Source of the DNA: Takakia lepidozioides
Taxonomy: Eukaryota > Plantae > Bryophyta
Assembly (NCBI GenBank): GCA_030704615.1
Contig: CM060732.1
Coordinates: forward strand, 2,356,001 to 2,420,000
Direction: 5' to 3'
Length of the DNA stretch: 64,000 nucleotides
In this document: in pieces, positions 19,413-49,796 of the stretch
How the letters are laid out: each line of letters opens with the position of its first letter
How positions within the stretch are numbered: the first letter of the stretch is position 1
Made by a program: the position numbers and the translations under genes
The notes under the pieces: generated by a model
Told to the model about the DNA's origin: nothing
The model's input: the letters and a program-made list of their open reading frames with translations, nothing else
Database searches by the model: none

Positions 19413-22049
19413 TTTAGCCTTTGAGACTTGTTTCCCTGGGTGTAGCCTCACATATATTGATTGTCCTATTTCAAACGAATCTGAATGCACAACACGTCTA
19501 TTGTAATGCTTAGCCTACGAGGCCTAAGCCAAGACAATATTATTTTTAGCAGTTTCCCTCAACCTGCGACGTTTGCAATCCAAATCATGTACAACTAATT
19601 GGTAGGTTTAGAAGGTGAAATATGCAAGGAAGTAATATGTACATTGTAAAGGGGTACGTCATTTCCAGCCATACAGGAGCTCAAAATGGGATAACTTAGT
19701 GCCAGTATGCACGAAGGTCGATAGGCAAAACTCAAGATAGGCAAAGCTATATCCCATTCGTCAATCAATGTCCAATTCTTCTCAAAACATGAAATTGACT
19801 AAAAATATATTTGGGGGTAGAAAAATATATTTTACCACGAAAGAGCCTTTGAGGGGTCCTTGAAAGCTTAAAGAGTTTTTTTCAATGATGGCATTATTTG
19901 TCATCCCCCAAGCACAATAGAGAAAAGTGGATGGAACTAATTATTCCTATATTTTATTTAAAAATATGATGATATGTATATAATAATATAATATAATATC
20001 TTTGCTATAATAGATGTTGACATCATGACAATGAAAAATACACAGTAAACTATAATTGAAAAAAATGTATATAAATAATTTGGATTGAAATATATATGAA
20101 ATGCACTCAATTAAGGTCTATTGGTCATTGTCATGCATACAGTGAGAGAGAGAGAGAGATCCGGTCAAAGTTGGCGTAACTAAGAGCCACTTTGTCTTGC
20201 GGCTATTGCCCCCTTGCGAGGGTGGGCCCTATGAAAGTAGGAGGCGATAACACGCCTTATAAAAAACCGTACTGCAAAGTGTGGACATGTTCAACTTTGC
20301 GTTTGATGGTAATGATTGTTATGAGGGATCGGATAGCCATGAGATTGATAGCTTTGAAGCATTACTGGATATTAGTGATAGATGCCTGGAAACTGTTATG
20401 CAATGCATGCATGCTAGCGTTATGGATGTCGTCTCTTGTTCCTGCTGTGATGACTGTTAACGGGCCAGTATTGGACATCCCGTCTACAAATTGCAAGAAT
20501 GAGAGGAGCGTATTTTTCATGTTTAGATAAGATGGTTGTATGTGGGTACCTATCATGACAGTAAGTGAATTCAATAAAGTGGATTGTGAGATTATTTGAG
20601 GAGACGATAAGGTAGGATGCGGTGTGGATAGACAGCCCGGTGACTAATAGTATATCTGGGCATAATCTAGCAAGATAGTTGCATGGTGTAGTGGAGCAGC
20701 AACATGGTAATAGCCATGATGGGGTAGTGTGATCAGGAGGCACTACAACATATCCTAGTTTTCATGACTCTCACTATATGGCAATCATGGTTTCAATGTC
20801 TGCAAATTATATGACTGCAGAGACGTGGAGGACATTGGCGATGAATCACGACTTGCAGGTGTTTGGGAGGATCCTTCAATTGGTCGTGTGGGCCCACCAG
20901 GACCCCATTGCTATGTCAAGGTATACCAGGCATGTTTGGGAAAATTATGGATGCTTTATTGTTCACCCAATGTTTCAGTATGGCTATAGAAACATTACAA
21001 GCACTTTGTGTAGTTGACTCGCACAGACATTACTAGAACTCACTGTGGCAATTGTCTACACTTACAACTGTGGCACCATCTGATTTTCTTAATATACTGG
21101 ATGAAAGTTGTACAGGCACGTTCCAAGAAAACTTCGTGCCCACAATCTTTCTATCTTCTTAACTAATATATATACATTCGTTTGAAGAATTCGTGATGAT
21201 CATTAGAGGTATGGAGATTGATTTGGTATTATGGTTGGGTGTATCAGCGAGGCACTGTTTCAGGTGAGCGTGAGCATAAAATGTTGTGAGCAGAAGAGGA
21301 ACTATCCTTAATTTTGGAGAATATTCCCCTTAATTCCGCGCCCGAACCTAACCCGAAGCAAAACCATGCCTCCGTTTTGTAAACCTCGGGCTCGGTCATA
21401 ATTCCGCGCAGAACTACGAATTCAGGCAGGAAAGGCTGAATCCGCGGAAATGCACGCATCTTCCGCGGCACTTTCCCCTTCCCCTCCACTACTTCCCTAC
21501 CCTCCTTGATGACTAGGGGAATCTCGGGGGTACGATGTCTCTTCCTCTTCTTCTTACCATCCCCGAGGGCCGCCACAGCCATTGTCCCTGTTTTGTCGGT
21601 GGCAAGGCTGTGCTTTGTCGGTGGCAACTTAGCCACGAATGCGCCAAGCTCATGAACACAAAACCCACAAAATTAGAAACAAACCAAAAACAAAATGAAA
21701 AGCAAAGGAAAGAAAACAAGGTGAAGGAAAGTGGCTCACCTTTGTGTCCATGACGTCAACGTTGCCCTCGGTCCCCGCTTGTGGTGTAGCCCCCAGAAGG
21801 CCCTCTCGGAATGCTGGTGTACTACATACACTCAGCAGCTCTGTGTCCAGGTTCATGGCACAAGAAACACAAACCCTTACGCCTGTGTTCTTCCTGTTCT
21901 TTGAAACTGAGCCTTGGGGGAGCCCTCATTGGCGGTCTCCGTATAGTTTGATCCCCCGCCTTCTTAAACGGTTTAAATCTCTTCCAATTCCCTTGTCAAG
22001 TTAAATAAGCACAGTGTGAAAACAGCTAGCATAAAACTAGTTGTTTGTA

Positions 22050-22108
22050 TTTAACACTTGGATTTAGGTCAAGTGTTAAATCAGGTGTCAAGTTTAGTTT
22101 GACACCTG
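22050..22108. repeat. Two adjacent perfect inverted repeats (11 bp and 10 bp stems)
   Basis: TTTAACACTTG-N9-CAAGTGTTAAA, then one base, then CAGGTGTCAA-N7-TTGACACCTG. Confidence 0.85.
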
Positions 22109-22568
22109 GTCCGTCTTATCTTCACGAGAGCGGCAGTCGCGCGGCTCATCTCTCTCGAGTTGAGCCTGCGCGACCGAGCTCCTGCATGTGTTTAGGTTTG
22201 AGTGTGCTTATGTAGGGATACAGGTTGTTGTGGGGTGGAGTCCCCATAGCTTGGGGTGCCCCTGGCTCGACTTCAGTTTCAATGAGTGATAGCGATGGAT
22301 TCATGTTGTTTCTGGTGTGAGCAGTGTGTTTTCTAGTTTTCTTATCACTCGAGAGAGATGCGCGTTATCTAGTGTGCTGGTGCTAAGCTAGATACAATGT
22401 TTGTTTTAGCATTATTATAATATATATCTTGGGGCGGGAGTCCATCTGGCCTTGCTGTTTCGCTGGTCTGTGCGCAAGAGCATAGGTGCTGTACAGTCCA
22501 TTAAAGGGAAAGGAAAGAAGAGTCTTAGAAAAGCCGCGCGAGAGAGGGAGAAGGAGAAGGTTGCAGAG

Positions 22569-23117
22569 ATGGAGAAGGCAGCGGATAGGCATTGAGGGAA
22601 TGTGGTGCTGGTGCTGGACTTCGGATCGCAGTATACGCATCTTATCACCGTCGTGTCCGACAGTTCTCTATTTGCTCCTTTTGCTTACCTGCTGGTACCC
22701 CCTTGGAAGCCATTCAGGGGCTCAATCCCTCCGTTATAATTCTCTCAGGTGGACCCCGTTCTGTCCATGAAGAGGGCTCCCCAACTGTGCCTGATGGCTT
22801 CTTCGAGTACACAAGGAATCATGGGATCGCAGTGCTTGGCGTTTTACGGGCTGCACCTTATTGTCAAAGTGCTGGGAGGAGAGGTCAAGCAGGCGGAGAG
22901 CCAAGAGTATGGGCGCATGTAAATAGCTGCTGTGAAGGACAGTAAACTATATGGTGATGCAGAGAGCTTCTCAATCCAGGTCATGTGGATGAGTCATGGT
23001 GATGAGGCAGTTTAACGTTCACCAGGCTTTCACATCGTAGCCACCAGTTTGCAGGGCAACATTGCTGCCATTGAGAACAGCGCTGCTGGAATTTATGCTC
23101 TTCAATATCATCCCGAG
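22569..23117 (+). pseudogene. GMP synthase glutamine amidotransferase domain fragment (first part of the chimera)
   Basis: VLVLDFGSQYTHLI, ILSGGP, QEYG, WMSHGDEA and ALQYHPE motifs, with stops and frameshifts. Confidence 0.9.
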
Positions 23118-23467
23118 GGTTTTGTGGCAAGGCCAGAGGCTGGGACGGACGGGTCTCTCAATCTCATGATCTGGCAGTGCACTTTACCTGGCAAAGCTGG
23201 GACTGATTGGGAAGGGGGATTCTACCCAATTGCAATCCATTTCAGCGAGGACTATCCCAGTAAGCCACCCAAGTGCAAGTTTCCCGCAGGCTTCTTTCAC
23301 CCGAACCTGTATCCGTCAGGCACAGTGTGCCTCTCTATCCTCAATGAGGACTCTGGGTGGAGACCAGCCATCACCGTGAAACAAATTCTGGTTGGCATCC
23401 AGGAGCTGCTAGATGCCCCAAATCCAGCTGACCCAGCACAGACTGAAGCGTACAACTATTCATCCAG
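23118..23467 (+). pseudogene. SCE1: Intronless SUMO-conjugating enzyme (SCE1/UBC9) fragment fused in frame to GMP synthase
   Basis: [68 protein letters not shown]. Lacks the N-terminal and C-terminal segments. Confidence 0.93.
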
Positions 23468-23713
23468 GTCGAGAAGTCACAGGTGGACCAGCTCAAGGTC
23501 TGAAACTCCCCCAAGTCTGAAACCTTCCAAGGCTGTTTACAACATGACAAGAAAGTAGCAGAGATATACCTGCTTACTGGCAAAGAGTCAGTGCTAGGAG
23601 CTGCATTTGATCCAGAGCTACACTCTGTACTGGAGCTGGCCAGTGATGCTGAGCTGTTTGAACTATTGAACATTCTCTATGGACAAAGCCTGCTGAGCCT
23701 GCTGTTGAAGTCA
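23468..23713 (+). pseudogene. Third captured host-gene fragment (conserved uncharacterised plant protein)
   Basis: AAFDPELHSVLELASDAELFELLNILYGQSLLSLLLKS resembles a plant protein motif of the form DPEL..VLELATDSELYEL..IL.GPSYFSPLLKS (recalled, not searched). Confidence 0.55.
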
Positions 23714-23714
23714 G

Positions 23715-23731
23715 TGGCGCTAGAAGGAGGG
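23715..23731 (+). promoter_or_regulatory. Primer binding site complementary to the 3' end of tRNA-Asn(GTT)
   Basis: TGGCGCTAGAAGGAGGG, one base after a CA dinucleotide at 23712-23713. Confidence 0.8.
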
Positions 23732-24197
23732 AAGCCTATGGGGTGCTAAGCCTGTCGAGCAGGGGTGTGTACTGGTGATACGAGCATGGGTCAGGGAGCT
23801 ACTTGGTTCAAGCGCAAAGGATCAAAGCCCTGGAGTCAGCATAGTCGGGGAACGGCCTCGGGAACCCGTAGATAACCAGGGAACAGGGAACCTAGACAAG
23901 TATTTTAAAAATTAATTAATTAATTTTATTAAAAAAAAAAGAAAAAAAAGAAGGTGTTATGTTTAAAGAGCCTGGTTGGTCATATCTTTGTCAAATGAGC
24001 TCCGTTTGACTCAGTTTTTGGGGGGATAGCTGCAGAAAGGGGAAATCTACCTACCTAGACCTGGTTTCTGTTTTTGGGACTCTGCTAAAAATCTATGGAA
24101 TTTTTAGAGTGTGAGTGTGCCATAAAAGATCCACAATCCTGTCTCTAGAACCTGTGCTGGTCTATATGAGAGACAAATCTGTGGATGTACTCCTTGC

Positions 24198-24947
24198 ATG
24201 GCTGGGGGAAATGAGGACGTAATTGAAGGGCAGGTCTCTTCTCTTAGCCTGTGCACACAAGGGGACAGGATTTATGTTTCCCAAGGAACTCAGACTGATT
24301 TGAGTGGAGAACAGTTGGACGAGTTGATTGCATACTGGGAGTCAGGCATTAGCAGTAGACAACAGACTGCTGTAGTTGGCATTGAGGGCCTCAATATCGC
24401 CTTGGACAGTCAGAACTCTGTTGGAGCCAGCAGTTCTGCAGCTGTAGGTGAAATACCAAAGTGGGTGAAAGCTAGGCTTGGAACACAGCCAAAGACAGCC
24501 CCGGGGACCAAGGTGTTCAGTCACAAGGCCGTGGTGTACTGGAGCAGAGGAGCAGGAGCTACACAAGTTTGTGCAATCAGACATGGTTGCAGCCGGATAC
24601 GCTCTGCACAGGGCAACCACGAGCGGGGGTTCATCAGCAATGACATGTTTGTTGTGCGTGAAGGAGATGCAGTCATTCGCAATGAGGACACCCGCAACCG
24701 TCTCAAAGCTTTTGAGTTGAGAGACTATCAGACCCTACCTTTGTTTTCTTTAGTGTTCAGTGAGCGGGAGATAGGGGAGTATTGCTTTGTCTCTACCTGG
24801 CAGAAAGAGGAGGAGGGTTGGTTAGAGCGAGCTACTGTAGCTTGGGACAAGGTTAGTGGCAGGTTTCTGGACATAGATATACCTCCTACACCTTACCATC
24901 ATGCAGAGCGAGGCACTTTGAGAGAAGTCTGGCAGTTGATAGCATAG
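24198..24947 (+). CDS. Intact 249-aa accessory ORF of unknown function upstream of gag
   Basis: ATG-initiated, uninterrupted, lies between the PBS and gag. No motif recognised. Confidence 0.6.
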   Translation: MAGGNEDVIEGQVSSLSLCTQGDRIYVSQGTQTDLSGEQLDELIAYWESGISSRQQTAVVGIEGLNIALDSQNSVGASSSAAVGEIPKWVKARLGTQPKTAPGTKVFSHKAVVYWSRGAGATQVCAIRHGCSRIRSAQGNHERGFISNDMFVVREGDAVIRNEDTRNRLKAFELRDYQTLPLFSLVFSEREIGEYCFVSTWQKEEEGWLERATVAWDKVSGRFLDIDIPPTPYHHAERGTLREVWQLIA

Positions 24948-25466
24948 ATCAGGATTAGATCTTGCTTGGTCGGGCTTCTATTCTTCCCCTCCATCTCTGT
25001 ACTATTTTCATTACCTTGTACTTGTAGTTGCCAAAGCCTCTCTTGGTGGAGGCCAGTCAGTCCGGGGTTTTGGGCTGGGATATTCTGCAGGATCAGCATT
25101 GCAGCTGGATTTTGGTGTGGGGGTGTTGATGTTTTGATTTCTTGTGTTTGGATCCCCCCCAACACCTGCATGCTTGACTGTGCGCCATGTTGGTTTTGTG
25201 TGGGCGCTTGCTTTCATAGGGATTAGGCCGGATTTGATCACCGGTCAATCCTAGAGTATGCTGTCGGTGGTGAGGCTGGAGTGATGACCAGCAAGACCAC
25301 CAGTGTTTCTTCTATGGTGAGGCTGGGTTGATGACCAGCCAACCATAGGAGTTCTTGCGGTGGATGCAGGTGCAGGTGCCCTGAGCCATTGGGATATGAC
25401 CCTTAAACTGCAACAGGTGCCCACCCGTGTCACTATTAGATTAGTACTAGAGCCTTATAGTGTCAC

Positions 25467-26900
25467 GTGGAGGAGGTGCACATTGTGAGTGTCATTACGG
25501 AGTTACCCAAGGGTTTTGAGGGGAGTACGGCTACAGGCAGTAACAGTGAGAGTGGGTTCACAAGACGAGGTATTCGGTTCAGACCACCTTCACCGCCACC
25601 CTCAATGCTTCATCAACAGGTGTGCACTTTCATTCGCCATTGTTGTGGGACGACATGGAGGAGATGTATGGAGCTACCAAGGGGCCTCGTAGGTACTCTG
25701 GAGCTGTGGGCACAATCGAGTTGGATGACTTTATCCAGGAGTTCGACAGCTGGTGTGATTTGCAGCAGATGCGCAATCCACAGCTATTCACCCCATTCAT
25801 GGCGTGGAAGGGACTGTTCCAGCATTTGGAAGGCCCGCCTATGGACGATTACCACGAGTTCAGGCGAGGACATGAAGCAGAGATTGAGGAGTGGAGGATG
25901 TATTGGTCACCTGACTACGTCTCCATTACTCGAGGCACGACGCGACCAGTAGCTGCATCAGTACCAATAGCTCCCACTGCCAGCACTAGTAGTGGAGCAG
26001 GTAGTGCTGGTACTTCTGCAGGTGGTACCAGTTCAAAAGGTGCTACTACTCCTCCTGCCACAACTACAACACATGTGCCTAGATTCAACCCGGTGGTGGA
26101 GTTCTTCCAGGAGTTGCGGAGGAACTACCAAGGTGTACGGACAGAGAAGCTGCGAAGTTTGCAAGACTTCCAGCGCAAACCCAGTGAGAGCCTGCGAGAG
26201 GCGTACACTCGTATGAGGCGCTTGATAAGTGTGACCCAAGGGGTTACTGAAGCTCAGGCAATCCAGTTTTGGTATGGAATTCTGGACAAGGAGCTCAAGA
26301 GAAGGGTGCGAGATGCAACCCTGTTACAAGCAGCCCAACCCACATTAGCAGATGTGTTTCTGCTGGCTGAGCGGATTGAGCTCAACATGGTGGAGGAGCG
26401 AGTTGTTACAATTGGATTTGGCAAGGACATGCCTGTACGGGGCACAGCTGTCAGCCCACAGGCACAAGGGACTGCCCAACAGCGTGGTCAGGGGGGCAAG
26501 GTTGCCCAGCCCAAGTTCCATGGAGCTTACAGGGGACCTCAGGTGCAGAGGCCCGTGGCATCTTTTGCAGGCCAACAGCAACCAGGGGTGATATGTTGGA
26601 CATGTGGAGGACCCCATGTCAAAGAGATTGCCCAGAGAATGGCAGAAGGCCGGCACAAGCACAGCCTGCACAGTTGCAGTGTGGGCATTGTGGCAAGTAT
26701 GGGCATGGAGATGCCCAGTGTTATGACTTGCATCCTGAGTTGCGCCCAGGCCAGTTCCAAGGGAACAATGGTGGCCGGGGGCGAGGTGGACCAGCCCAAA
26801 GAGGACGAGGTGGTCGGGCACGAGGTGCAGGCCAAGGGCAAGCTCCACATGGCCAAGGACGCGGAGGTCAGGGTGTTGACCAAGGCATGGCCAATCGGCT
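25467..26900 (+). CDS. gag: Gag (capsid plus two zinc knuckles and an RGG-rich region), split by apparent 1-nt deletions
   Basis: QRKPSESLREAYTRMRRL (major-homology-like); CWTCGGPHV(K)RDC and CGHCGKYGHGDAQC. The true start may be upstream (ATG at 25396). Confidence 0.85.
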
Positions 26901-27659
26901 TCAGCAGCTAGAGCAGAGGCTCGCTGCCATGGCTATAGCTCAGGCGGTACCGGCTCCCAGGCGGGATGGTCCACCTCCTGCTCCTGAGGGAGGAGATATG
27001 GGAGGCATGGGATTCATGTGCGGAGCAGCACTACCACTAGAGCAGGTGGAGTCTGCTGCAGCCGTGACTCGAGGAGCAGCACGAGTTCCTGAGCCACGAG
27101 GTGCAGAGGTGGAGTTGGATCCACAACGTGGGGAGGCAAGCCGTCAGGCGAGGCTGCCTCAGTCATTCACCTTGGCGGAGACAGTGTCAACGCCATCCAT
27201 GGCACCTAGTTCTCGCCCGACTGTTACCGAGGCGGAGGTTACTATGCCATTGGGGAGAGCTACATGTGCAGCACTGACATCTGCTACCAAGGCTAGTGCA
27301 GCCGGTGTGTTATTGGGGGCAGCCACCTCTGTGTGTCAAGCCCCACTGTTCTCGGCAACCATGATTGCGACGCCGGGGGTGAGACCAGCTGCAGTGTTCA
27401 GACTAGCAGCAACTCTCTGTGAGAGTGGGGAGGTCACTTCATCTTCTGCGGAGTTAGTGGAAGGTATAGTGGCAGAGGGATCCTCGGATTTGAGGGTCAA
27501 GACTGCCACGGCTGCGCCATGGCAAGTTGCAGCTGCCAGGTTGACGGAGCTGCCAGCTAGGCCAGCCATTGAGCGCGCCATGGTGACACCTGGAGTTGTC
27601 TTGTTAGACAACCAGGGAGGCATTTTCACTTTGAGTGGACCGGCAGGCAAGAAGTACCG

Positions 27660-27990
27660 GCCACTGCGGGTCTTGTTGGACTCAGGAGCTCAGCCACTGA
27701 TGTTGGGCAGAGCTGCTATTGCAGGTTTGGGCCTCATGGAGGCGGATATGGAGCCTTGTCCTTTCCAGATACAGACATCTCTGGGAGGATCAGAGCAGGC
27801 TCGCGGCATGACACGACATCAGTTGGCTATTAGACTGCAGCCGGATCATCCTGTAGATGGCTCAGTGATGCGAGCCAAGGCCATTGTGACAGACGCGGTC
27901 TCTTACGATGTCCTCGTTGGTGGGGCAGTGTTATACCCCATGGGCTTCACCCTGGATTTCTGGGAGGAGTCAGCATCCTACAGGCCTGGA
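27660..27990 (+). CDS. Retropepsin-type aspartic protease domain
   Basis: VLLDSGAQPLML ... YDVLVG within ORF 26593-29436. Confidence 0.85.
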
Positions 27991-28389
27991 TGGCAGTCAG
28001 GGGATGGTCGCCGTGCACAGCTCCCTGTGACATTCATTGGGGGTATTGCAGCTGCCCAGCGGGGCAAGATGCCAACACTAGCCGCCTTCACAGCTGCCGT
28101 TAGTTGGCCTGGAGAGTTGCTGGAAGGCAATGCCCATGCAGAGGATGTGCCACCTCCAGCAGAGCAGGATGACATGCATGGTACGGCGGAGTTGCCTGCC
28201 ATGGTTGCTCACACTCCGTTGTGGGGTACGAGCAAGGATTTGCAGCAAGCTGCTGATGGACGGGTGCAACAAGCTTGGGAAGAAGCTTTTGTACCGTCAG
28301 GAGAGGAGGAGAGTGCGGTGATTGCACCAGGGCCACCTCAGTTGTCGCCATTGGACACCACACCTCTTGTGTGGCAGCGGCCGGATGAA

Positions 28390-29345
28390 GGCATTTGCCT
28401 TCTGGACTTGTTTGGCGGGATCAGCACCGGATTGGCTGCTGTGCTACAGGCAGGTGTGCGGGTAAGGCGTTACCTGTATGTGGAGAGGGATGAGACTGCA
28501 CGACGCATCTCACTGCGCCATGTGGCTCAGTTGGTACAGCAGTACCCTGACTTGTTGCCTGTGTCTGCAGTTCGTGGATACCAACAAGCCTTGCCAGCAG
28601 ACATTTCCTTGTTGGGGGCGCAAGATTTGGAGCAGGTTGGCTCCATTGATCTGATAGTGGCAGGTTGGCCCTGCCAAGGGCATTCATCAGCCGGGCATGG
28701 CAATGGATTGCGAGACTCGAGGACGGGTCTGTTTTGGGAGATGGTGCGGATTTTGCGCTGCTTGCAGCTTCATCAAGCTGTATCTCCAGCATACATCTTG
28801 GAGAATGTACCACTGATGGGTGATTCTCGGGCCAGGGTGATGGCCAGTGTGCATCAAGTCCGGTCGTGGCTTGGGTCAGCAGTGTTGCTGGATGCAGCTG
28901 CAGTGGGGTCACGGGCTCATCGTCCACGACTATGGTGGACTAACTTGATGCCACCCGCACTGCTCAAGCGTGCATTTGATGGGGTGCAGCGGCCAGCACA
29001 CCTCACCGTGGATGGCATTTTGGACACAGGAAGGCAGTCTCAACGTGTGAGACACGATGACCGTTCGCCTTTGGCAGTGGTCAACAGGGTGGGTCAACCA
29101 CGAGCAGCATTACCTACACTGCTCAGCTTCCCAGGATCCCATGCTTTTCGGGATGGTGGACCTGGCCTCCTGTGGGATGCTCAGTTGCAGCAGTTAGTGG
29201 AGCCTAATGCCGACGAGCGAGAGCGGGCTATGGGGTTTTCCACTGGGACCACGGCGGTGCCTTCTCTTTCTGAGGCATCACGTCGTCAGGTGTTGGGGCA
29301 AGCAATGGATCTCAATTGCTTGACCTGGATTGTCAGCTTGGCTAT
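28390..29345 (+). CDS. C5-cytosine DNA methyltransferase domain, DNMT3-like, embedded in the retrotransposon polyprotein
   Basis: Motif I LDLFGGISTG, II VERD, III ADI, IV DLIVAGWPCQGHS (catalytic Cys 28672-28674), VI ILENV, VII/VIII LDAAAVGSRAHRPRLWWTN, IX ERERAMGF, X RRQVLGQAM, in unpermuted order. Confidence 0.93.
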
Positions 29346-29798
29346 GGCTGAGCAACGTAGAGTGCGGAGTGCACTTCCCTTGACGGTCTCTCTGCCTACC
29401 GAGACGGTACAGGCAGCGAGTGGGGGCGAGCGGTGAGGACCACGAGGTGTAGACATCCATGGCACATGTGGGAGGTGCTCGAGGTTCAGAGGGAGTTGGC
29501 AGCGAAGGCAGCTGTGATGGATGAGGTTGGGGATTCTTCTCGGGATGAGGAGGTTCTCAATGATGAGATGATGGGGCAGGATGAGGCCTTGTCATTGACT
29601 GAGCAGGAAGGGGGTACTGCTCAAGAGGTTGCAGCATAGCAACCACGGGACGCGTCCTCTACCTCTAAGCCCACTGGACTTAAGGTTGCAGTTACGGAGG
29701 ACAATTGGGAGCCTGACATTGGACCCATTGTCACCGGAGGAGAGAGACGACGTATACGGCGGTTCCTGAGGGCTTATAGGAATTGCTTTGCCTTCAGT

Positions 29799-31010
29799 TT
29801 GAAGGACTTGGGAGCACTGAAGGGTCAAGAGATCCGTATTGAGTTGGCCACTGACACGCCAATCTTTCGGAGACCCTATAGATACAGTGACATGGAGAGG
29901 TCTTTGATTCAGATGAGGACTCAAGATCTCTGGGAGGCAGGTTTGGTGGAGCTCTCTGGTGGAGAGTATGCTTCAGCCACAGTGATGCCAGCTAAGAAGG
30001 ATGTCTATGGCAATTGGACGGAGAGACGTATGTGCGGTGATTACCGGCCTGTAAATCGTCAGACCAAGTCCGATAGGTATGCCATGCCAACACCAGAGGA
30101 GATCTTTGATGCCATTGGGCATTCCAAGGTCTTTAGCACGTTGGATTTACGATCCGGATATCACCAGTTGCCGATCAAGGAGGCGGATAAGCAAAAGACG
30201 GCATTCTGGGGGATCAATGAGCACGGGAAGGATTGCCTATACCAGTGGCGGTTCTTACCATTTGGGCTTAAAAACGCTCCCGCTGAGTTTCAAAGAGTCA
30301 TGGACAGGATTCTAGCAGGGGTGGAGTTTGCTCGGTGCTACATAGATGACATCATCATCTTTAGTGCTACGGTGGAGGAGCATGAGAGACACCTTCAGGG
30401 GGTATTTGAGCGCTTGAGGACGCACGGATTGAAGTTACATCCGGGCAAGTGCAAGTTTTTCCACAACCAGATTGAGTATCTGGGTCACATGATATATCCT
30501 GGAGGATTGGGGGTACAGCAGACTAAGGTAGAGTCCATTGCACAGGTTCCACGCCCCACGGATGTGAGCCGAGTTCGAGCTTTCATGGGGTTAGCAAACT
30601 ATTACAGACGGTTTGTTAAGGGATTTAGTGCCATTGCAAAGGCTCTAACCAAGCTGACCAAGGTGGACCAGGAGTGGCAGTGGGAAGATGAGCAAGAACA
30701 AGCTTTTCAAGAGCTCAAGGCGAGGTTGACCTCGGCGCCCATCTTGAGACGACCTATCAGGGGGCGTCCTTTTCAGCTGCATACAGATTGGAGCATGCTG
30801 GGGCTTGGAGCGGTGCTCACACAGGTGGATGATGAGGGAAGAGAGTTCGTAGTGGCTTATGCTAGCCGCTCGAACAATGCTGCAGAGTCTAAGTATAGCT
30901 CATATGAGGGAGAATGCTTAGCTGCAGTGTGGGCCGTGGCACACTTCAGGTGCTATTATACGGCAATCTCTTCACCCTTGTCACGGATCACCAACCACTC
31001 AAGTGGTTGA
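29799..31010 (+). CDS. pol: Reverse transcriptase and RNase H
   Basis: [32 protein letters not shown] (30339-30350), YLGH, LHTDWS, YASR, ECLA. Confidence 0.96.
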   Translation: MKDLGALKGQEIRIELATDTPIFRRPYRYSDMERSLIQMRTQDLWEAGLVELSGGEYASATVMPAKKDVYGNWTERRMCGDYRPVNRQTKSDRYAMPTPEEIFDAIGHSKVFSTLDLRSGYHQLPIKEADKQKTAFWGINEHGKDCLYQWRFLPFGLKNAPAEFQRVMDRILAGVEFARCYIDDIIIFSATVEEHERHLQGVFERLRTHGLKLHPGKCKFFHNQIEYLGHMIYPGGLGVQQTKVESIAQVPRPTDVSRVRAFMGLANYYRRFVKGFSAIAKALTKLTKVDQEWQWEDEQEQAFQELKARLTSAPILRRPIRGRPFQLHTDWSMLGLGAVLTQVDDEGREFVVAYASRSNNAAESKYSSYEGECLAAVWAVAHFRCYYTAISSPLSRITNHSSG

Positions 31011-32773
31011 TGGAGTCAGACAAGCTTACGGGGAAGCTTGCACGGTGGGCACTCATCCTTCAAGAGTATGACTTTCAGGTGGTGCATCGACCGGGTTTGG
31101 TCAATCGAAATGCAGATGGGTTGAGTCGCAATCCATGCACGAGCCAGCAGGATGACACTGGAGCTCGGTGGCATGGTGAGACGGACGAGGAGATGGTGCC
31201 CGGATGGCATGCATCTGCATTTCTGTGTATCTTGGCAGCGGAAGGCCAGGTTGGACCTACAACAGGGATGACTGTAGATCAAGTGTCTGAGGACCCTGAG
31301 GCCAGCAATGAGCAGGGTGGCGCCAAAGATATACATGAGGATTCAGTTGTGTTGGACTACCTCCGCAGTGGAGACACGGCAGCCACTATGACTGCCAAGG
31401 AGAGGGATCGGATCCTACAACGAGCCAAGAGGTTCAGGTGGGAGGGGACACACCTGCTCCGAGTGTGGGAGGATGGTCGAGTGAGGATTGTGCCTCACCC
31501 AACACAGCGGGCACGGTTAGTGCGGCATGCCCATGAGGAGTTGGGGCATTTTGGGGTGCGACGCACTCATAGTCTACTGCAGGGGCAGTATTGGTGGCGT
31601 GGTATGCACACAGAGGTGCAACAATTTGTGGCTAGGTGCATGGTGTGTGACAGGGTGCGTGCTTCATTCAACGCCCCTACTCCACAATTGCACCCTCTTC
31701 CGATCATGGGATTGGGCTACAGGTGGAGTCTTGACTTCGCAGGGCCGTTGCCACTGACCATGCGCCACAACAAGTACGTGTTGGTGATGGTGGAGCACTT
31801 CTCCAAGTGGATTGAATTGGTTCCATTGCCTGATAAGGCTAGTGAGGGAGCTGCGTATGCATTCTTGGATTGTGTGCTTAGCCGATTCGGTGCTCCAGCT
31901 GAGGTACTCACGGACCAAGGGAGAGAGTTCTTGGGGGAGTTTCAGGCTTTGTGTGACAAGGCCTTGATAGACCACCGCACCACTTCTCGGGATCATCCTG
32001 AGGCCGATGGCTTGGCAGAGAGAGTTGTTCAGACAGTAAAGAGGGGTTTGCGCAAGTATGGCTTGCAGAAGGGACACCTAGGAGATTGGGACCTTCAGTT
32101 ACCCTGGTTAGCCATGGGCTACAGGTTCAGCAAGCAAGCATCACTTGCCTCCTTCTCACCATACTTTCTTCTCTTTGGCCGAGAGCCGGATTTGCCTACA
32201 TCCATTCGCAGAGAAGCTGCTACAGTTCTTAACCTTGACGATCCGGACGTGTGGGCACGTGCATGTGAGCAGCGTGCAGAGTTGTTCAAGAGAGTCATGC
32301 CCATGGCTTTCGAGAACCTTGCCATTGCACAACACCGTGATACGTTGAGGTATGCTACCATACGTGGTGGGGGCTATCGTCCTGGGGTTCGGAGATTCAA
32401 CCCTGGTGACTATGTCTATCTGCAGCAGACTGCTCCTACGACCCTGGATGTGACTGCAGGACGTGTTATTTTGAGGGTTCGAGAGGTCTTGCCCTCAGGC
32501 GTCTTGGTCTTGGAGGGTCGGGATGGCATAACTTGGAAGGACCATGTGCGTAATTGTGCGCCATGTCACCTTCCGAATGTCGATGGCAGGATTGACCCAA
32601 ACCTGGCAGTGGTATCTGCAGGTTTGAGGTGCATGTTGTGTGGGTCTGCTAAAGGGGCAGCCACCATGCTGGTGTGTGATCGATGCTCTAGAGGTTGGCA
32701 TATGGGATGCTTGACTCCACCTCTTGAGATGGTTCCGGATGGGGATTGGTTATGTCCACAATGCATTGGATAG
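30914..32773 (+). CDS. End of RNase H, integrase (HHCC + DDE) and C-terminal PHD finger
   Basis: HEELGH..CMVC; LDFAG, TDQG, GLAER; ends CMLC..MLVCDRCSRGWHMGCLTPPLEMVPDGDWLCPQC (C4HC3). Confidence 0.95.
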   Translation: MLSCSVGRGTLQVLLYGNLFTLVTDHQPLKWLMESDKLTGKLARWALILQEYDFQVVHRPGLVNRNADGLSRNPCTSQQDDTGARWHGETDEEMVPGWHASAFLCILAAEGQVGPTTGMTVDQVSEDPEASNEQGGAKDIHEDSVVLDYLRSGDTAATMTAKERDRILQRAKRFRWEGTHLLRVWEDGRVRIVPHPTQRARLVRHAHEELGHFGVRRTHSLLQGQYWWRGMHTEVQQFVARCMVCDRVRASFNAPTPQLHPLPIMGLGYRWSLDFAGPLPLTMRHNKYVLVMVEHFSKWIELVPLPDKASEGAAYAFLDCVLSRFGAPAEVLTDQGREFLGEFQALCDKALIDHRTTSRDHPEADGLAERVVQTVKRGLRKYGLQKGHLGDWDLQLPWLAMGYRFSKQASLASFSPYFLLFGREPDLPTSIRREAATVLNLDDPDVWARACEQRAELFKRVMPMAFENLAIAQHRDTLRYATIRGGGYRPGVRRFNPGDYVYLQQTAPTTLDVTAGRVILRVREVLPSGVLVLEGRDGITWKDHVRNCAPCHLPNVDGRIDPNLAVVSAGLRCMLCGSAKGAATMLVCDRCSRGWHMGCLTPPLEMVPDGDWLCPQCIG

Positions 32774-33020
32774 TGGGAGTGGATACAACCATGGAAGGCT
32801 AACAAGCAACGCAAGGCCCAGCTACAGGATACCTTGAATACACGAATCCTGGCTCAAGTTCACAGATTGCAAGACGGCGACTAACGATGGGGCTACTCTT
32901 GTACCCGGCCTCTTGGTCTATAGAGTTTGAGTACGATAGGGACAGTGATAGAGGACTTAGTACGGCTATGGCTATTACATCTTGTAGCTATCTGGAGGTA
33001 GAGGGACCTATCCACCAGCT

Positions 33021-33030
33021 AGGGGGGCGA
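33021..33030 (+). promoter_or_regulatory. Polypurine tract of the DNMT-bearing element
   Basis: AGGGGGGCGA followed by T-TG, about 250 nt after the pol stop. Confidence 0.65.
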
Positions 33031-33130
33031 TTGTGGTAGACTACTTTATTGTGCAATGGATATGTATGCGCACGACACCCTCTCTACGCTGGTGACTGCC
33101 AAGGACCAGATGATCTAGGCTTGCAAACCA

Positions 33131-33146
33131 GCTTTGATACCACTTG
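33131..33146 (-). mobile_element. tRNA-iMet PBS and LTR end (CA) of a different, opposite-strand LTR element
   Basis: Minus strand reads ...TTACA AG TGGTATCAAAGC. Confidence 0.6.
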
Positions 33147-34364
33147 TAAAAGATCTGACTCTCTTTTCTTTGTCCAACTATGACCAAATTTCAGGCGCTT
33201 TGCTTTGGTTGCTGTTCACAGGGAATTTACCAAAATTCCAAGGAAAATGATTGCTCGGGATTTTGTTTCAACCGGACTCTCATCTATATCTGAATTCCAG
33301 CCAAGGCCCTATTCTTATTCCACTTCCCTCATTTACAAATTCACAGATCGATCAAGAGATCGTCACTCCTACTTTGGCCTGATTCCTTGTTCAAAAGATC
33401 TCCCTGTCAACCTATGTACTCATCTCATGCCATTCTATCTATGCACAGTACTGGACTACGATGTCCAGTCCGCCCCTCCACCACACCGTGCATCAACACA
33501 TTCTATCACCATAGACCAGTGCAGATCGATCATTTTTCTTCTTCTCACGACCTCTTTTTCTGCTCACCAAAAAGCACAGCACCGGCTACGTCCGGTCCAC
33601 CCAGCCACCACGCCATGCTACGCTAGTTTCCTGTCAATACAGATCTGCTCTAGATGCCTGTACACCATCATTCTTTTCTCTTCTCCACTCTTGCCATCTC
33701 TAAGCCCACTTTTTATAAATCCCTAATCGTGGATCTGTTCGTGAACGCGAGCCTGCTCCATTCGACCTGCAACTGTCAGTTCGGCGGTCTTCTAGCAGTC
33801 ACTTGCTTCGCCAAACTGGTCGACAGGTCTCGATCTTTGTTCAAGGCACCTAACAGCAGTCTGATCAAGAAAAATTGCAAGAGTTTGATACACCTGGCGT
33901 GCAAAAACAAAAGAGAGAAAGCAAATTGGGTAAGCTCAGCTTTGGTGAAGACTCACCCTACAATCTCAATATTCTGCATGGAGGGCACACCAGGTCATCA
34001 ATGAAGGCGGATAATGCCAAGCAGAAGGACTGGGGTGACCCACAGGAGTTAAAACTGAGAATGCAGCAAGTAAGAATCAAGGAAGAAGGAAGTGAAGAGG
34101 CTCATCTGAGTGGTGCAATGAGAAGAGAACCCAGAAGGCTGGGATAACCACAACAGCTTGGGGGTGTCTCTGATGCATCAAAAAACGGAGGTCGAGCCAA
34201 GTGCTATGACCCAAACCCAGAGTGAACACAATGGCTTTGTGAGGCCAAGGAGAACAATGCCCATGGAGCACACACATGAAGTCACACAAATGACAAATAC
34301 CAGGTACAGCTTTGAAATCAACAAAGTCAATGAAGATGGGTTGTCTGTCAAGGAAAAGGCGGAA

Positions 34365-34597
34365 TTAGGGAAGGGTTCACCAGCTGCAAGCTTTTGTCAA
34401 GGCTTTGAGAAGGAGATCAAGACCTTGTGGGAATGCAGCTAGTAGAGGAACAAGTTGATGAAAGCAGCAACATGGAAGCAGAGTGGATCCGGGTTGACTA
34501 TGACAAACCTGAGATCATCAAGCAAGGCATCGGAAGGCCCAAACGAGGAACACTATGCAAGATCTGCAATGACATGAGGCACAATCATCACACACAC
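34365..34597 (+). repeat. Gag-like TE fragment, near-identical to 53557-53787
   Basis: About 230 bp dispersed duplication encoding ..GRPKRGTLCKICNDMRHNHH (knuckle-like). Confidence 0.75.
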
Positions 34598-36809: not shown

Positions 36810-39760
36810 ACCATGACCACAGCTTCTGAAAGAGGATCAAGAGAGGGAGTCCACAATGCCTCTTCTGCTGGGCATGTGAAGATGCTTTGTGAGGCAGGCA
36901 GACTGACAGAGGCTCTACAACTTTAAACTAACAAGGCATTTCAGCAGATTCAGATACGTCTTCTGTCTCTTGCTTAAGTGCATCAAGATGAAAGGTCTGG
37001 AAGCTGGAAACAGGTGCACACTCACATTATCCAAAGTGATTAACGCCAAATGTTTTTCTACTCAACACCCTTGTCAACATGTATGTTAAGTGTGGGAGCA
37101 TCATGGATGCTCACCAGGTTTTCCACAGAATGCCTCGACCATCTTTGATCACGTGGAATATAATGTTGGCAGGATTTACCAAGCATGGGTGTGGTAGGAA
37201 TGCTTTGGAGACCTATGAGCAAATGTTGCACATCACGTTCGTTTTGTGTTTGCAATTCGTGTGCAAGCCTGGGAGCCCTGGAAAAGGGGAAAAGGTCCAT
37301 GATACATCGTGAAAGCTGGAATTGTACCAGATGTGATTCTGAACAACACCCTCGGGGACATACATGTCAAATGTGGGCATTGAGGACGGGGAGGGAGTGT
37401 TCAACAATATGGCTGAACGAGATTTGGTGTCATGGAACGCCATGCTTGCAGGGTATGCACTACAAGGGGGTGGGATGGAGGCCTTGGAGACCTATGAGCA
37501 AATGATGGTGGAAGGGGTGAAGCGCAACCACATCGTGTTTGTGTGCGTTTGCAGTGCGTGTGCAAGCCTGGCAGCCCTGGAAAAGGGCAAAGAGGTGCAT
37601 GGTTGCATCGCCAAAGCTAGAATTGTACCAAATGTGATTATGAACAATACCCTCGTGGACATGTATGCCAAATGTGGGTGCATTGAGGATGCATGGGAGT
37701 GTTCGACATGGCTGAACGAAATGTGGTGTCGTGGAACGCGATGATCGCAGGATATGCCCAGCATGGTCATAGGGAGGTCCTGCAAGAAGGAAATGCAAAA
37801 GAATGGCTTGAAGCTGGACAGTCTCACCTTTATATGTGTTCTCTCTGCATGCAGCCACACTGGCCTACTGAATGAAGGAAATCAAGATCATGGTGTCACT
37901 CCGACAGTAAAGCACTTTGGCTGTATGGTGGACCTTCTTGGACGTGCGGGACAACTGGATGAGGCAGTGGATCTGATTAATAAGATGCCAATCAATCCAG
38001 ATCTTGTGGTGTGGAAGGCCGTGCTTGGTGCCTGCAGAATCCATGGCAATGTGGAGATGGCTGAACGTGCGGCAACATCTATCCTCAAATGGGATGAACA
38101 GGATGCCGTGACTTATGTGTTGGTATCAAACATGTATGCTGCAGCTGGCAGGTGGGATGATACTGCAAAGGTGAGAAGAATGATGAAGGTCAGAGGGGTT
38201 AGAAAGCAGCCAGGTCGCTGCTGCATTGGGGTTGGCAACAGGGGCACACCTGCTGTAGATGACAAGTTGCATCCCAATTAAGGAAATCCATGCTGAGCTG
38301 AGAAGATTGTCTGGGCAGATGAAAGGAGGCGGGGTATGTGTCTGATACGCACTTTGTATTGCATGATGTGGGGGAGGAGGAAAAGGAATTTTCTCTTTGC
38401 CACCACAGTGAGAGGCTGGCCATTGGTTTTGGGCTGATCAGGTTTGTGTGCGGTTGCAGTGCGTGTGCAAGCCTGGCAGCCCTGGAAAAGGGCAAAGAGG
38501 CCCATGGCAACATTGTCAGAGCTGATGTGGTGTCGTAGAACTCGATGCTTGCAGGGTATGCACAGCAGGGGCACTGGATGGAGGCTTTGGCTCCAGATGT
38601 TGTGCTTGGCACACTATGTAAACCCACTATGTAAGACCAGGGAGTAGTTGAGCAGCTCAGTCTCAACCCTTTCCTAGTGCCAACAAATGATGTGGATTCA
38701 CGCCAAAAAGGTCTGGAAGCTGGAAAGCAGGTACACACTCACAAGCATCGCAGGGTATGCAGAGCAGGGCGTGGGATGGTGGATTTGGAGACCTATGATC
38801 AAATGATGGGGAAGGGGTGAAGCCCCAACCACATCACGTTTTTGTGTGATTGCAATGCTTATGCAAGCCTGGCAGCCCTGGAAAAGGTCAAAGAGGTCTA
38901 TGTTGACATTGTCAAAGCTGGAATTGTACCAGATGTCATTCTGAACTCTGCCCTGGTGGACATGTATGCCCATGTGGGTGCATTGAGGATGCAAAGCAAG
39001 GAACTTATGTGTACTCTGTTTATATACTGGGTTGGCAGGGAGGCTTTGGAGATTGTGAATGGGTGATGCTTGCAGGGTATGCACAGCAGGGACATGGTAT
39101 GGAGGCTTTGGAGACCTATGATCAAATATTGATGGGGGAAGGGGTGAAGCCCAACCACATCACGTTGCAGCATACTGGTACTTCACAGCCATGGCGGCTC
39201 TCTCAGCCCTCCATTTTTTTTTTTTTTGGTTTTTTTGGCGCTGGGAGAGAGCAGCAGCTCTGCTGTCTCCTTCCCCTTGCTTATGCCGATCGTTAAAGGG
39301 GAAATTGTCATTCTGAACTCTGCCTTGGTGGACATGTATGCCAAATGTGGGTGCAGCAAGCCTGATGTGAAGGGAGAGTTTGACAATATGGCTGAACGAG
39401 TTGTGGTATTTTGGAGTGCCATGATTGCAAGGTATGTGCAGCATGGGTATGGGATTAAGGCTTTGGAAACATAAGAGCAAATGATGTGGGAAGGGATGAA
39501 GCCAGACCAGGCCGTCATGTTCATTTGTTTTTGTAATATGCATATGCGAGCCTAGCAGCCCTGGGAAGAGGCAAAGAGGTTTATGGTGACATTATCCAAG
39601 CTGGAATTGTACCAGATGTCATTCTGAACATTCCCCTGGTGTACATCTACGTCAAATGTGAGCCTGGCAGCCATCAAAAGGGCACAAAAGGTCCATGATG
39701 ACATCGTCAAAGCTGGTTGTCACTCTAAACACTGCCTTGGTGGATATGTATTTCAAGGCA
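36810..39760 (+). pseudogene. Disrupted PLS-class PPR gene with E/E+ and truncated DYW domain, followed by scrambled PPR fragments
   Basis: LVDMYAKCG, VSWNAM and TFVCV..ACA repeats; E domain WKAVLGACRIHG..YVLVSNMYAAAGRW; DYW start ..[15 protein letters not shown], then a break. Many stops and frameshifts. Confidence 0.88.
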
Positions 39761-40379
39761 GCCCTGGAAGTGGATGTCACTTTGGGTGACAAGGTAGCTG
39801 GCACCACCATTCTCTGGAACTACCTGAATTCATTCTCAAAATGATTTCTAATGTTCTCTTGACATGTCCACGATAGTGCTGGACCTAGCTGCACAGCAGA
39901 TTATCCTTACTCAATGACTTCAGTTGGGCAGTGATCTATGGATATGGCAACATGGCCCTCATGTTGGTCATTTGTAGAATGTGGCCAAAACTTGTTTTGC
40001 AAATCACTCTTGATATGAAACCAGTTTTGAGCCATCCAAATGTTTTTGGTTCCGACCTGTATTTGTATTCTATGTTTTGTTGTATTTGTAATATATTTTC
40101 AATGCAGTGCAGCGAATCAAAAAATTTAAATACAATATCCACTAATTCACATACGTACAGATATAAACTAAAAGTAAATGAAAAAAACGAAACAACAGTA
40201 ATAAAAAAAAAACCAAATATTAAATAAAAAGCCTCCCAATTCATATATATTATATTTATATGTATATATGTATATATACCTCCAGAGTGAAACATATTTA
40301 CTAAACTGTGTCCTCTTTTACTGCTTCACAGTAGAATATTACAATATACAAAGTCAAGCAAACTCACTATCACTGATTA

Positions 40380-43800: not shown

Positions 43801-45000
43801 CGAAGACGCCAAACTCACTAACCAGGACATCTACCTCCTGTACATTGACTTTAAAAATGCCTTTGGATCTCTTGACCATGCCCGACTTCTCGCGGACCTG
43901 GGCTATCCCACCGATGCTATTCAACTCATCGGCGACATCTATATACTGGCAGCTCCATAGAATATTCTGGCTCATACTACGGTTCCACCCCCCCCTATCC
44001 CAATTCTGAGAGACATTATCCAAGGTGACACCCTAAGCCCTTACCTGTTCATCATCTTCCTAGAACCCCTTCTTATATGGATCGACCAAGGCAAAATAGG
44101 CTATCGATACAAAACCTCTAACAATACCATCTCTACTGCTGCCTATGCAGACGACCTTGCCATACTCGCCCACTCCCCTCAACATCTCAACCGACAAGCA
44201 GACAAGCTATCTAGATTCAACCAATGGTCTGGCATGGAGCTTAGCCTCCACAAATGCACTATCACCGCAGCTACCCATCATAGCAAATTCACCAAGGCCA
44301 CGACGGCCTCACACTGCAAATTGCATATCCACTACCAAAACAAAAACTTTCCCTTCTTAGGCCCTGATGAACCCTACACCTACCTAGGCATACAACTAGT
44401 CCCATCCCTCACCTAGCATCTCCAAAAATCCACTACGATCGCAAAATTGACTGACAGAAGCACGGCCCTCCTCAAATCCCATGTATCCATCCGCCCCAAA
44501 CTCTCCCTCATTCAAACTGTACTCAAACCCCAAGTCCAATGCTCTTTTCACACAACTCCCTTCTCTCTCCCAGATCTCAAATTAATCGACAAACATTTCA
44601 TTCAGCTCACTAAACGTATATGTGGCCTACCCACCAGCACTCCCAATGCCCTTACCCAGCTCCCAACTGACAGCTATGGCATAGGTATTATCCCGCTACT
44701 TACCTCTTACGCCCGCACCCTGGGCAAGTAACTTCAAGAAGCCCTCAACAACCCTGGCCGGCTAGGCCTTATCTATAGAGGTCTCCTTCAATTCCTGGCT
44801 ACCAAATATAACGGCCTCCACTCCCTACCCACCCTCTACCCCCAATCTTGTCTCCACTCTCCCACAACTAGAACCCTCTACATCCTTCGACAAATGAACA
44901 TTAGCATACAAACCAATCTTCCTAGCTATCCTAACACCATTTCACCTCTTGAACAAGCCTGGTGTCGCACACCTCACTTCGGTAAGCTCCCCTTCAAGTT
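40880..45000 (+). mobile_element. Degenerate LINE with AP endonuclease and RT, Dualen/RandI-like
   Basis: ITSWNV, ILLQET, ILAGDFN, SDH (APE); LGNYRPIVLANTIYKLFT, QEGFR, EDAKLTNQDIYLLYIDFKNAF, IIQGDTLSPYLF, AYADDL (RT). Strongly C-rich coding strand. Clade assignment is tentative. Confidence 0.82.
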
Positions 45001-49100: not shown

Positions 49101-49796
49101 TTAGTGATATCTGTGATCCCCTCATGAAATGGAATGTTGTTAGGCTGATCCCAACCTGGCTGATTAAATGCTTCCCTACTAACCTCATTCCCTTGGTTTG
49201 TCTTGTGATGTGCAGCGACTTCTCTCACACCATCATTACTTGGGCTCACTGTTGGCACTGTTTGTGTGCACTTCTCCCCTTGCTCAAGCTCCAACACTTC
49301 CAAGCTGAGCTCCTTGGCAACCCTTGCTCCCCTTGCTGTGCAATTACGTGCCTCTGATAATATCCTTAAGCCTAAAACGTATTTACCAGTATCTGCTTAG
49401 TCATGTATCCCGTCGATTCAAGGCTGCGCCCCTCAAGCCGACGACCAGTATTGCATCAATGCTCTGCATATCGCCATCTACTCGACCTTCATCCTGCTTC
49501 GTCGTTCATTCATTTGTAGCCTCGTTCGTCCTCCTTAGTGAAAGCACGCATGTTGCCCCCACCGATGAACTGCTTTTAATGCTGACTGTTCATAATCCGT
49601 TCATCCGCACATGCCTTTGGCACATACATCACTATTTTCTACATTCATTCTCTCCAACTTCATCCTACTTCCGTCTGCCCATCATTCGTTTGATAAACCC
49701 CTAGGGTTTTATTGGCACTTGTTTTCCCCTTACAACTGTAAAGTACTCATTTTTTTTTAGAGGAAAGTCCCTTTTCATCAAGTCAGCACACTTACT

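Follow-up and report, generated by a model that had tools for sequence, protein, structure and literature searches.

A Ty3/Gypsy retrotransposon of the moss Takakia lepidozioides with a DNMT3-like methyltransferase, a split terminal repeat and a PHD finger on its integrase

We analyzed 64,000 nucleotides of Takakia lepidozioides (assembly GCA_030704615.1, contig CM060732.1, positions 2,356,001 to 2,420,000, forward strand), and this whole stretch is called the window. Its sequence holds a Ty3/Gypsy element at 21994-33077 that encodes a cytosine methyltransferase, is about 11 kb long and is bordered on both sides by a 4-bp target-site duplication (TSD). An initial annotation had started the element at 26593; this position is mid-Gag, as Gag begins at 25655. 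We are nearly certain of the anatomy of the element, that is, its domain order, ends and parts. As a whole, with a probability of roughly 0.6, we explain it as a decayed copy of an old green-plant Gypsy lineage that would make its polymerase by readthrough of a stop codon, methylate its own cDNA and insert itself from a circle. The features are listed below.

21990-21993, + strand: 5' TSD, CCCT, the same letters as 33078-33081
21994-22347, + strand: block A, right part of the split long terminal repeat (LTR; TGTCA...TTATCA), matching block A of relatives in position and ends
22348-22360, + strand: self-priming primer-binding site, complement of 22147-22159
22589-23474, + strand: pieces of host genes, apparently captured and with broken frames (PF00117 below cut-off; PF00179, E 7.8e-38)
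24126-24947, + strand: orphan open reading frame (ORF) of 273 codons in the 5' region, a species-level repeat from 24500 by high contig depth
25655-27000, + strand: Gag with two zinc knuckles, 3' limit approximate (PF03732, E 0.001, below cut-off)
27600-28010, + strand: aspartic protease, DSG at 27679, by sequence motif
28390-29340, + strand: DNMT3-like C5 cytosine methyltransferase (PF00145, PDB sequence matches, fold, motif order)
29637-29645, + strand: in-frame TAG followed by CAA CCA, where readthrough from ORF1 into ORF2 is predicted, by junction comparison with relatives
29640-31070, + strand: reverse transcriptase (RT; YIDD) and RNase H (PF00078, E 7.7e-33; PF17919, E 5e-31)
31499-32200, + strand: integrase with H2C2 finger and DDE core, 3' limit approximate (PF17921, PF00665)
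32630-32773, + strand: PHD finger at the integrase C-terminus and ORF2 stop (PF00628, E 1.7e-10)
33021-33030, + strand: polypurine tract (PPT), kept in relatives
33032-33077, + strand: block B, left part of the split LTR (TGTGG...GCACGACA), 46 nt, ends compared with relatives
33078-33081, + strand: 3' TSD, CCCT, the same letters as 21990-21993

The methyltransferase and its family

Four overlapping plus-strand ORFs cover the coding region: 25550-26911 (Gag), 26380-29436 (knuckle, protease and methyltransferase), 29640-31010 (RT and RNase H) and 30908-32773 (the end of RNase H, integrase and the PHD finger, the last a feature additional to the initial annotation). The order Gag-protease-RT-RNase H-integrase, the primer site, the PPT, the TG...CA ends and the short TSD are those of Ty3/Gypsy elements. 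Gag was 47-76% identical to ORF1 proteins of Marchantia. The aspartic protease of the window copy gave no Pfam match, and the relatives P0259 and P0328 gave weak protease matches. The window copy is decayed, with frameshifts near 26622 (Gag), near 29430 (after the methyltransferase) and near 30956 (RNase H). Public contigs of four runs were aligned to 24500-34000 for depth and sister sequences; since the three frameshifts were absent from many sister contigs, it is the window copy that has decayed. The family is clearly abundant in the species: in run X2 the summed contig depth, which is not a copy number, was 0.6-1.4 million across the coding sequence, methyltransferase included, and about 3,000 past 33058.

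The initial annotation had described an uninterrupted methyltransferase domain with canonical motifs, sharing its ORF with the Gag knuckle and the protease, and this holds: the ORF 26380-29436 (1018 aa) contains a CCHC knuckle, an LLDSG protease motif and a domain matching PF00145 with E 9.2e-13 (48.7 bits, well above the cut-off of 22). The motifs run in the order FGGISTG, VERD, GWPCQ, ENV, AHRPR, ERERAMGF and LGQAM, motif III not being separately scored; the codon of the catalytic Cys lies at 28672-28674 and that of the Glu of ENV at 28801-28803 (window copy, plus strand). Judged by its sequence and modelled fold, the domain is a DNMT3-like, non-permuted C5-cytosine methyltransferase. The best PDB sequence match was DNMT3A (45 bits), against 29 bits or less for DRM and 23 for M.HhaI, and a family profile scored DNMT3A at 80 bits, DRM at 49 and M.HaeIII at 40. 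The AlphaFold model had a pLDDT of 94, and its top Foldseek match was DNMT3A bound to DNA (E 2e-20, TM 0.72/0.84). The three segments that had been likened to DNMT3 do align to DNMT3A, and the exclusion of permuted plant DRM stands: the window domain has the canonical order and is not circularly permuted, and DRM scores lower and aligns to positions 1-127 of the family profile only. Host DNMT3 (human DNMT3A; moss DNMT3, PMC6453930, cited like all papers here for the parts of its text available) shares the canonical order and is closest in solved fold and sequence. However, identity to host DNMT3 or DRM is about 20%, and the domain of the element has no PWWP, ADD or plant accessory domain, is intronless and is mobile.

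Judged by homologous sequences, the family is old and wide, occurring in Marchantia, Calypogeia, Sphagnum and green algae. Among 67 longer homologues there were 18 proteins from Marchantia polymorpha, 1 from Calypogeia fissa, 2 from Sphagnum, 1 from Monoraphidium and 1 labelled Chrzof1, which we take to be Chromochloris; the rest were nameless. No protein named after Klebsormidium or a vascular plant occurred among these 67 or a further 60, which is weak evidence, as the searches were candidate-limited and most entries nameless. A profile search gave 494 clusters (50% identity) with E 1e-30 or better, and 144 of the best 150, those not already in the set, were analyzed. The methyltransferase stood before RT or closed the protease ORF, as in the window, in 12 representatives (type A); it stood after RT/RNase H in 64 (type B) and probably so in 16, and 52 were methyltransferase-only pieces. 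In type B proteins (e.g., P0045, P0063 and L045, with chlorophyte-labelled entries included) it lies between RNase H and integrase. The catalytic Cys was present in 142 of the 144, the Glu of motif VI in 143 and the two Arg residues of motif VIII in 142 and 143; motif IV read ECQ instead of PCQ in 88, frequently in type B.

In a quick RT tree of 73 rows types A and B were separate (SH-aLRT 93). In a FastTree of 129 methyltransferase rows, whose outgroups were 17 prokaryotic or phage sequences only, type B fell on one side and type A needed two changes. These topologies are compatible with a single ancient capture after which the domain changed position; two independent captures would be a possible alternative. 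The published idea of a capture confined to Klebsormidium would be replaced by that of an earlier origin, the domain having two positions that belong to two RT clades. Viral contigs (30 loci) gave partial matches only, at 25-48% identity, and served as outgroups.

Comparison of substitution rates indicates that the methyltransferase domain is under purifying selection between intact lineages. The ratio of nonsynonymous to synonymous substitution rates (dN/dS) was 0.12 for L020/L021 and 0.11 for L020/L026, compared with 0.16 and 0.03 for RT and 0.12 and 0.11 for the protease of the same pairs; between the window and L009 the dN of the domain was 0.21 and dS was saturated. Two findings weigh on the other side: among decayed moss-like copies dN/dS of the domain was 0.35-1.13 (RT 0.27-0.67), and 15 of 24 methyltransferase domains checked contained stops.

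The selection between lineages also bears on the idea that a fragment of host DNMT3 was captured by chance, or that the join is an assembly artefact. The window copy is broken, and the element does hold what is apparently captured host sequence, a GMP-synthase-like glutamine amidotransferase fused to a piece of a ubiquitin/SUMO-conjugating enzyme (22589-23474). However, the domain is under purifying selection, occupies the same position in proteins of Marchantia, Calypogeia and Sphagnum and in dozens of metagenome loci, and recurs in the 494 clusters. One contig from a second organism covers 28082-33038 and one from another study covers 29266-31436, and these spanning contigs argue against a chimeric assembly. 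We regard chance capture and artefact as refuted, with hardly any probability left to them. Of the checks proposed at the outset, those on sister copies, selection between lineages and chimerism came out in favor of the domain.

The stop codon between methyltransferase and reverse transcriptase

The methyltransferase had been placed directly before RT. This needs correction: about 98 codons, the frameshift near 29430 and the in-frame TAG at 29637-29639 intervene, and the domain closes the Gag-protease ORF ahead of a conserved stop, a position from which it would be synthesized at the level of Gag and not within Pol. The earlier reading is partly supported; the Gypsy-borne DNMT3-like enzyme stands, and its expected level of synthesis changes.

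Intact type A ORF1 proteins stop 70-100 residues past the methyltransferase. We compared this junction in 53 metagenome loci, found by searches seeded with the methyltransferase, and in the window; 11 were unscored (9 truncated, 2 of type B), which left 43 testable. A stop with a CAR-YY-like context was found in 37 of the 43 (exactly CAR-YY in 35, exactly CAR-YYA in 9), counts that are not independent because many loci are duplicate assemblies. After any stop triplet the background was 0.7% for CAR-YY and 0.2% for CAR-YYA. Of the remaining six, four had no RT in the vicinity, and in two the ORF ran on uninterrupted. The junctions with the stop context span lineages at about 50% methyltransferase identity and fall into about six context types, namely CAA CCA, CAA CTA, CAG TTA, CAA TCA, CAA CCC and TAG CCA, the last probably mutated. 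In the intact L020, an ORF1 of 1369 codons is followed by TAG CAG TTA and then by 1047 codons. CAR YYA after UAG is the readthrough signal of tobacco mosaic virus (TMV; PMC2754532, PMC2194720); the element shares this context, but here the stop falls after the protease and methyltransferase. From these contexts we consider it likely that RT, RNase H, integrase and the PHD finger are made by readthrough of the conserved TAG.

Several points weigh against readthrough. The largest subfamily (moss-like) has CAA CCC ATG and not CAR-YYA, with the ATG in frame; the stop was TAA in 8 of the 37 junctions; L050/L051 and P0259 have no stop between the methyltransferase and RT; and in Tca2 a readthrough-like context can fail on testing (PMC2194720). 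Another explanation would have ORF2 expressed by re-initiation, an internal promoter or splicing, and copies of the layout A-body-B formed by trimming a linear cDNA at its two internal sites, not from circles. The ATG right after the stop context of the moss-like subfamily and the precedent of Tca2 speak for its first part, but an ATG is missing at this point from the window and from five further context types, which still keep CAR-YYA. We consider this alternative improbable, also in view of the ends described below.

Split ends and integration from a circle

When the window was searched for direct repeats, no pair of LTRs came up. A truncated 3' LTR was considered and dropped, as the ends of relatives and the borders in the window resolve the LTR as split into blocks A and B. 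In relatives, block A (339 nt, TGTCATG...TTTTCA) stands at the start and block B (112 nt, TGTGG...GACA) stands last, after the PPT; block B measures 46 nt in the window copy versus 112 nt in moss-like relatives. At the 3' end of the window copy a sister contig departs at 33055 and depth drops after about 33058. Of the loci, 12 include the 5' end (10 distinct flanks); every one opens at TGTCATG, without B before it. A 4-bp TSD was present in the window and in all four loci with both outer ends (L017, L022, L030 and L044), the five duplications being CCCT, TACA, CACA, AAGG and ATTA. Copies have the layout A-body-B or A-body-B-A-B, with ends TGTC...GACA. L030 reads A-body-B-GC-A-AT-B, whereas L009, L020 and L026 show B-NN-A before the contig ends; the junction CA-NN-TGTCA is retained in all four. 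A loose form of the junction pattern gave 29 matches against about 6 expected, mostly at one internal minus-strand site.

The primer site of the window, a perfect 13-nt complement to 22147-22159, was the one such match among 978 CA positions, and the RNA fold of the duplex had a z of -3.57, with 0 of 200 shuffles equally stable. Directly after A, with its target about 170 nt upstream, a complement of 16 nt occurs in L025 and L030 and one of 9-10 nt in L009, L022, L034 and L044; L004 had a misplaced match only, and L014 and L017 had none. Transcription is likely to start near 22147, within block A. The positions of the primer site and the PPT imply that the true LTR is B+A, and the integrated copies are thus circular permutations of the expected cDNA. 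The permuted copies open at GACA-NN-TGTC and have lost the two spacer bases. Foamy-virus integrase cleaves palindromic LTR-LTR circle junctions (PMC1180852, PMC1905944); the palindromic CA-NN-TG site is shared, but here the palindrome lies inside U3 and not at the LTR-LTR junction. On this comparison of ends, the integrase probably opens a circular cDNA, with one or two LTRs, at the palindrome inside the LTR.

Other possible sources of the layout A-body-B are recombination between B blocks, trimming of a linear cDNA and collapse during assembly. Trimming accounts for A-body-B without a circle, but the A-AT-B tail of L030 requires an end-to-end LTR junction. A-body-B has no R region at its 3' end and is expected to be a dead end. 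Integration from a circle is weakened by two points: the full A-body-B-A-B form is known from one metagenome contig (L030) plus the published arrangement in Klebsormidium, and no A-B-A-body-B copy occurred among the loci examined, though an unbiased circle model predicts such a product too.

Some loci depart from these layouts. L050, a GC-rich distant member with the methyltransferase and RT in a single ORF, has terminal repeats at 1-133 and 11941-12073 and a CA-GC-TGTCACG site at 1553, downstream of the PHD finger; this could be a counterpart of the attachment site or arise by chance, and is a lead only. L012 (10031-11865) and L022 (13184-13465) hold internally deleted derivatives that retain the A and B ends, the former passing from the methyltransferase to the PHD finger; they are possibly non-autonomous forms.

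Possible role of the enzyme and relation to known elements

Taken together, the parts suggest the following cycle. Transcription would begin in block A, and the RNA would prime itself. Most ribosomes would terminate at the TAG, so that each Gag is made with one methyltransferase, and a few percent would read through. We infer that the enzyme is packaged, freed by the protease within the particle and able to methylate the cDNA. Reverse transcription would yield BA-body-BA, which would circularize; the integrase would then cut GACA-NN-TGTC at the junction of B and A, discard the 2-nt spacer and insert the product, with the PHD finger tying the complex to histone H3 tails. A two-LTR circle would give A-body-B-A-B, the sole form with R at its 3' end, and a one-LTR circle or later B-B recombination would give A-body-B, as in the window copy. 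A methylated copy would land already marked like host DNA.

Catalytic self-methylation of the cDNA at CG is, by a modest margin of confidence, the function we favor, based on the near-invariant catalytic residues, the selection, the predicted abundance in the particle and the CG activity of a DIRS-borne Dnmt3 (see below). In the element, the frequency of C at third positions before G was 0.16, against 0.44 in a Gypsy element of the window without methyltransferase (p 4e-8); on the opposite strand the values were 0.28 and 0.55, and CHH did not differ. Whole-element CpG observed/expected was 0.51, no different from the flanks (0.44 and 0.56). The third-position depletion speaks less for self-methylation than it may seem: it compares one element with one element, the host kinase gene described below was even lower (0.10), and L045 and L051, distant members rich in GC, were not CpG-depleted, so that host MET1 can explain it. 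Moreover, no methylation was obtained in yeast with the Klebsormidium domain, in a test that the authors regard as inconclusive (PMC5890265).

That inactivity would suit a domain kept for a role other than making 5-methylcytosine, such as binding DNA or RNA in the particle, guarding the circle or steering the integrase to the internal site; so would the ECQ of motif IV in 88 of 144 representatives and the co-occurrence of split repeats and a methyltransferase in DIRS elements too. However, the catalytic Cys, the Glu and both Arg are near-invariant, which pure binding would not need, and we regard such a role as quite improbable.

Alternatively, the enzyme could act on the chromosome, at the insertion site, its neighbors or existing copies, and so damp transcription of its own family or of competing elements; the PHD finger would then play the part of the ADD domain of DNMT3. 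The best PDB matches of the finger were PHD fingers of CHD4, PHF12 and KDM5B/KDM5A, and that of PHF21A was also similar. The fingers of CHD4, KDM5 (PHD1) and PHF21A are readers of H3 tails unmethylated at K4, which suits chromosomal action, and synthesis at the level of Gag would leave free enzyme. However, an acidic residue ahead of the first Cys is the mark of K4me0 readers and is absent here; the PHD finger and the methyltransferase lie in separate ORFs and would be parted by the protease; and the five TSDs show no CG preference. We consider chromosomal action unlikely, though less so than a purely binding role, and the proposal that the enzyme writes methylation onto host neighbors is not supported by anything in the analysis. 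The PHD finger is predicted to bind H3 tails not trimethylated at K4. Beyond self-methylation, we put forward only tentatively that a Gypsy lineage as old as green plants converged on a DIRS-like cycle with a capsid-level DNMT3, methylation of the circle, DDE integration of that circle through a palindrome within the LTR and PHD guidance.

This type of element is already published, split repeats included, in Klebsormidium nitens (de Mendoza et al. 2018, PMC5890265). KnitGypsy-Dnmt3 likewise has Gypsy domains, an intronless, non-permuted Dnmt3-like domain under purifying selection and DIRS-like repeats in the order A-coding-B-A-B, the full form seen here in L030 (A-body-B in the window). In contrast, its domain is described in the Pol ORF and from the K. 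nitens lineage only, whereas here it closes the Gag-protease ORF and occurs in land plants; a single ORF with methyltransferase and RT, as in KnitGypsy-Dnmt3, was seen in the distant members L051 and P0259. The integrase of the window element bears a PHD finger; the supplements of PMC5890265 examined, which did not include the figures, mention neither a PHD finger nor Marchantia or Sphagnum, and its main text, as available, offers no mechanism for the repeats. SymbioDIRS-Dnmt3 of Symbiodinium also combines a Dnmt3-type domain with split direct repeats, and showed CG de novo methylation in yeast (PMC5890265). However, it has a tyrosine recombinase, and the present element has a DDE (rve) integrase, TG...CA ends and a 4-bp TSD. 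Tcn1/Tf1-Sushi chromoviruses also belong to Ty3/Gypsy, occur in non-seed plants, are predicted to prime themselves and have a chromatin reader on the integrase (PMC6317226), but they carry a chromodomain, of which there was no match here, where a PHD finger, a methyltransferase and a split LTR are found instead; the survey text available mentions neither methyltransferase nor PHD finger.

PMC12344493 repeats the Klebsormidium report and names no bryophyte copies in the text available, and the available parts of PMC6317226, PMC2864245, PMC6453930 and PMC10952607 do not mention Gypsy elements bearing a methyltransferase. Our literature searches, outside whose scope lay most subscription papers and repeat databases, found no description from land plants. 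Apparently new are the occurrence in land plants, Marchantia among them, the predicted readthrough junction, an integrase with a PHD finger, the existence of two positions for the domain and a reading of the split ends in terms of mechanism. One reason why the function of transposon-borne DNMTs has stayed unsettled since 2018 is that the known hosts were hard to manipulate; the 18 Marchantia polymorpha proteins make the question testable in a genetic model. Mobile copies may confound bryophyte DNMT counts and methylome genetics. A stop placed after the methyltransferase implies a bulk need for the enzyme. If the tentative reading of a DIRS-like cycle is true, bryophyte genomes, that of Marchantia among them, would contain an overlooked agent of de novo methylation, and catalogues built with LTR finders would miss it for want of paired LTRs. 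A DDE integrase that routinely inserted circles through an internal site would be taking an unusual path.

Other features of the window were also noted. Within the element, the orphan ORF at 24126-24947 had no Pfam match, no counterpart in loci L001-L053 and no usable Atlas match; its depth from 24500 was about half that of the coding region, and it may be present in a subset of copies. Just past the element, the minus-strand stretch 33130-33146 resembles a tRNA-Met primer site. The Gypsy pol without methyltransferase (RT, RNase H and integrase; 46835-49224, minus strand) has a much higher CpG content, and further integrase pieces lie at 50057-50680 and 52982-53455. Fragments of non-LTR retrotransposon RT ORFs were found at 10788-12133 (minus strand) and 42791-44416 (plus strand). 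The host kinase gene consists of intron-split exons of a PBL27/PBL7-like receptor-like cytoplasmic kinase (3627-6104, minus strand), with best matches in Calypogeia, Marchantia, Riccia and Ceratodon at 71-75%; a quick tree put it among seed-free land plants without a firm position, but outside the three liverworts. Decayed clusters of PLS-type PPR repeats occupy 37000-39800, with an E motif at 37745-38281, and 62800-63840. A 231-bp repeat occurs at 34365-34595 and 53557-53787 with 98% identity.

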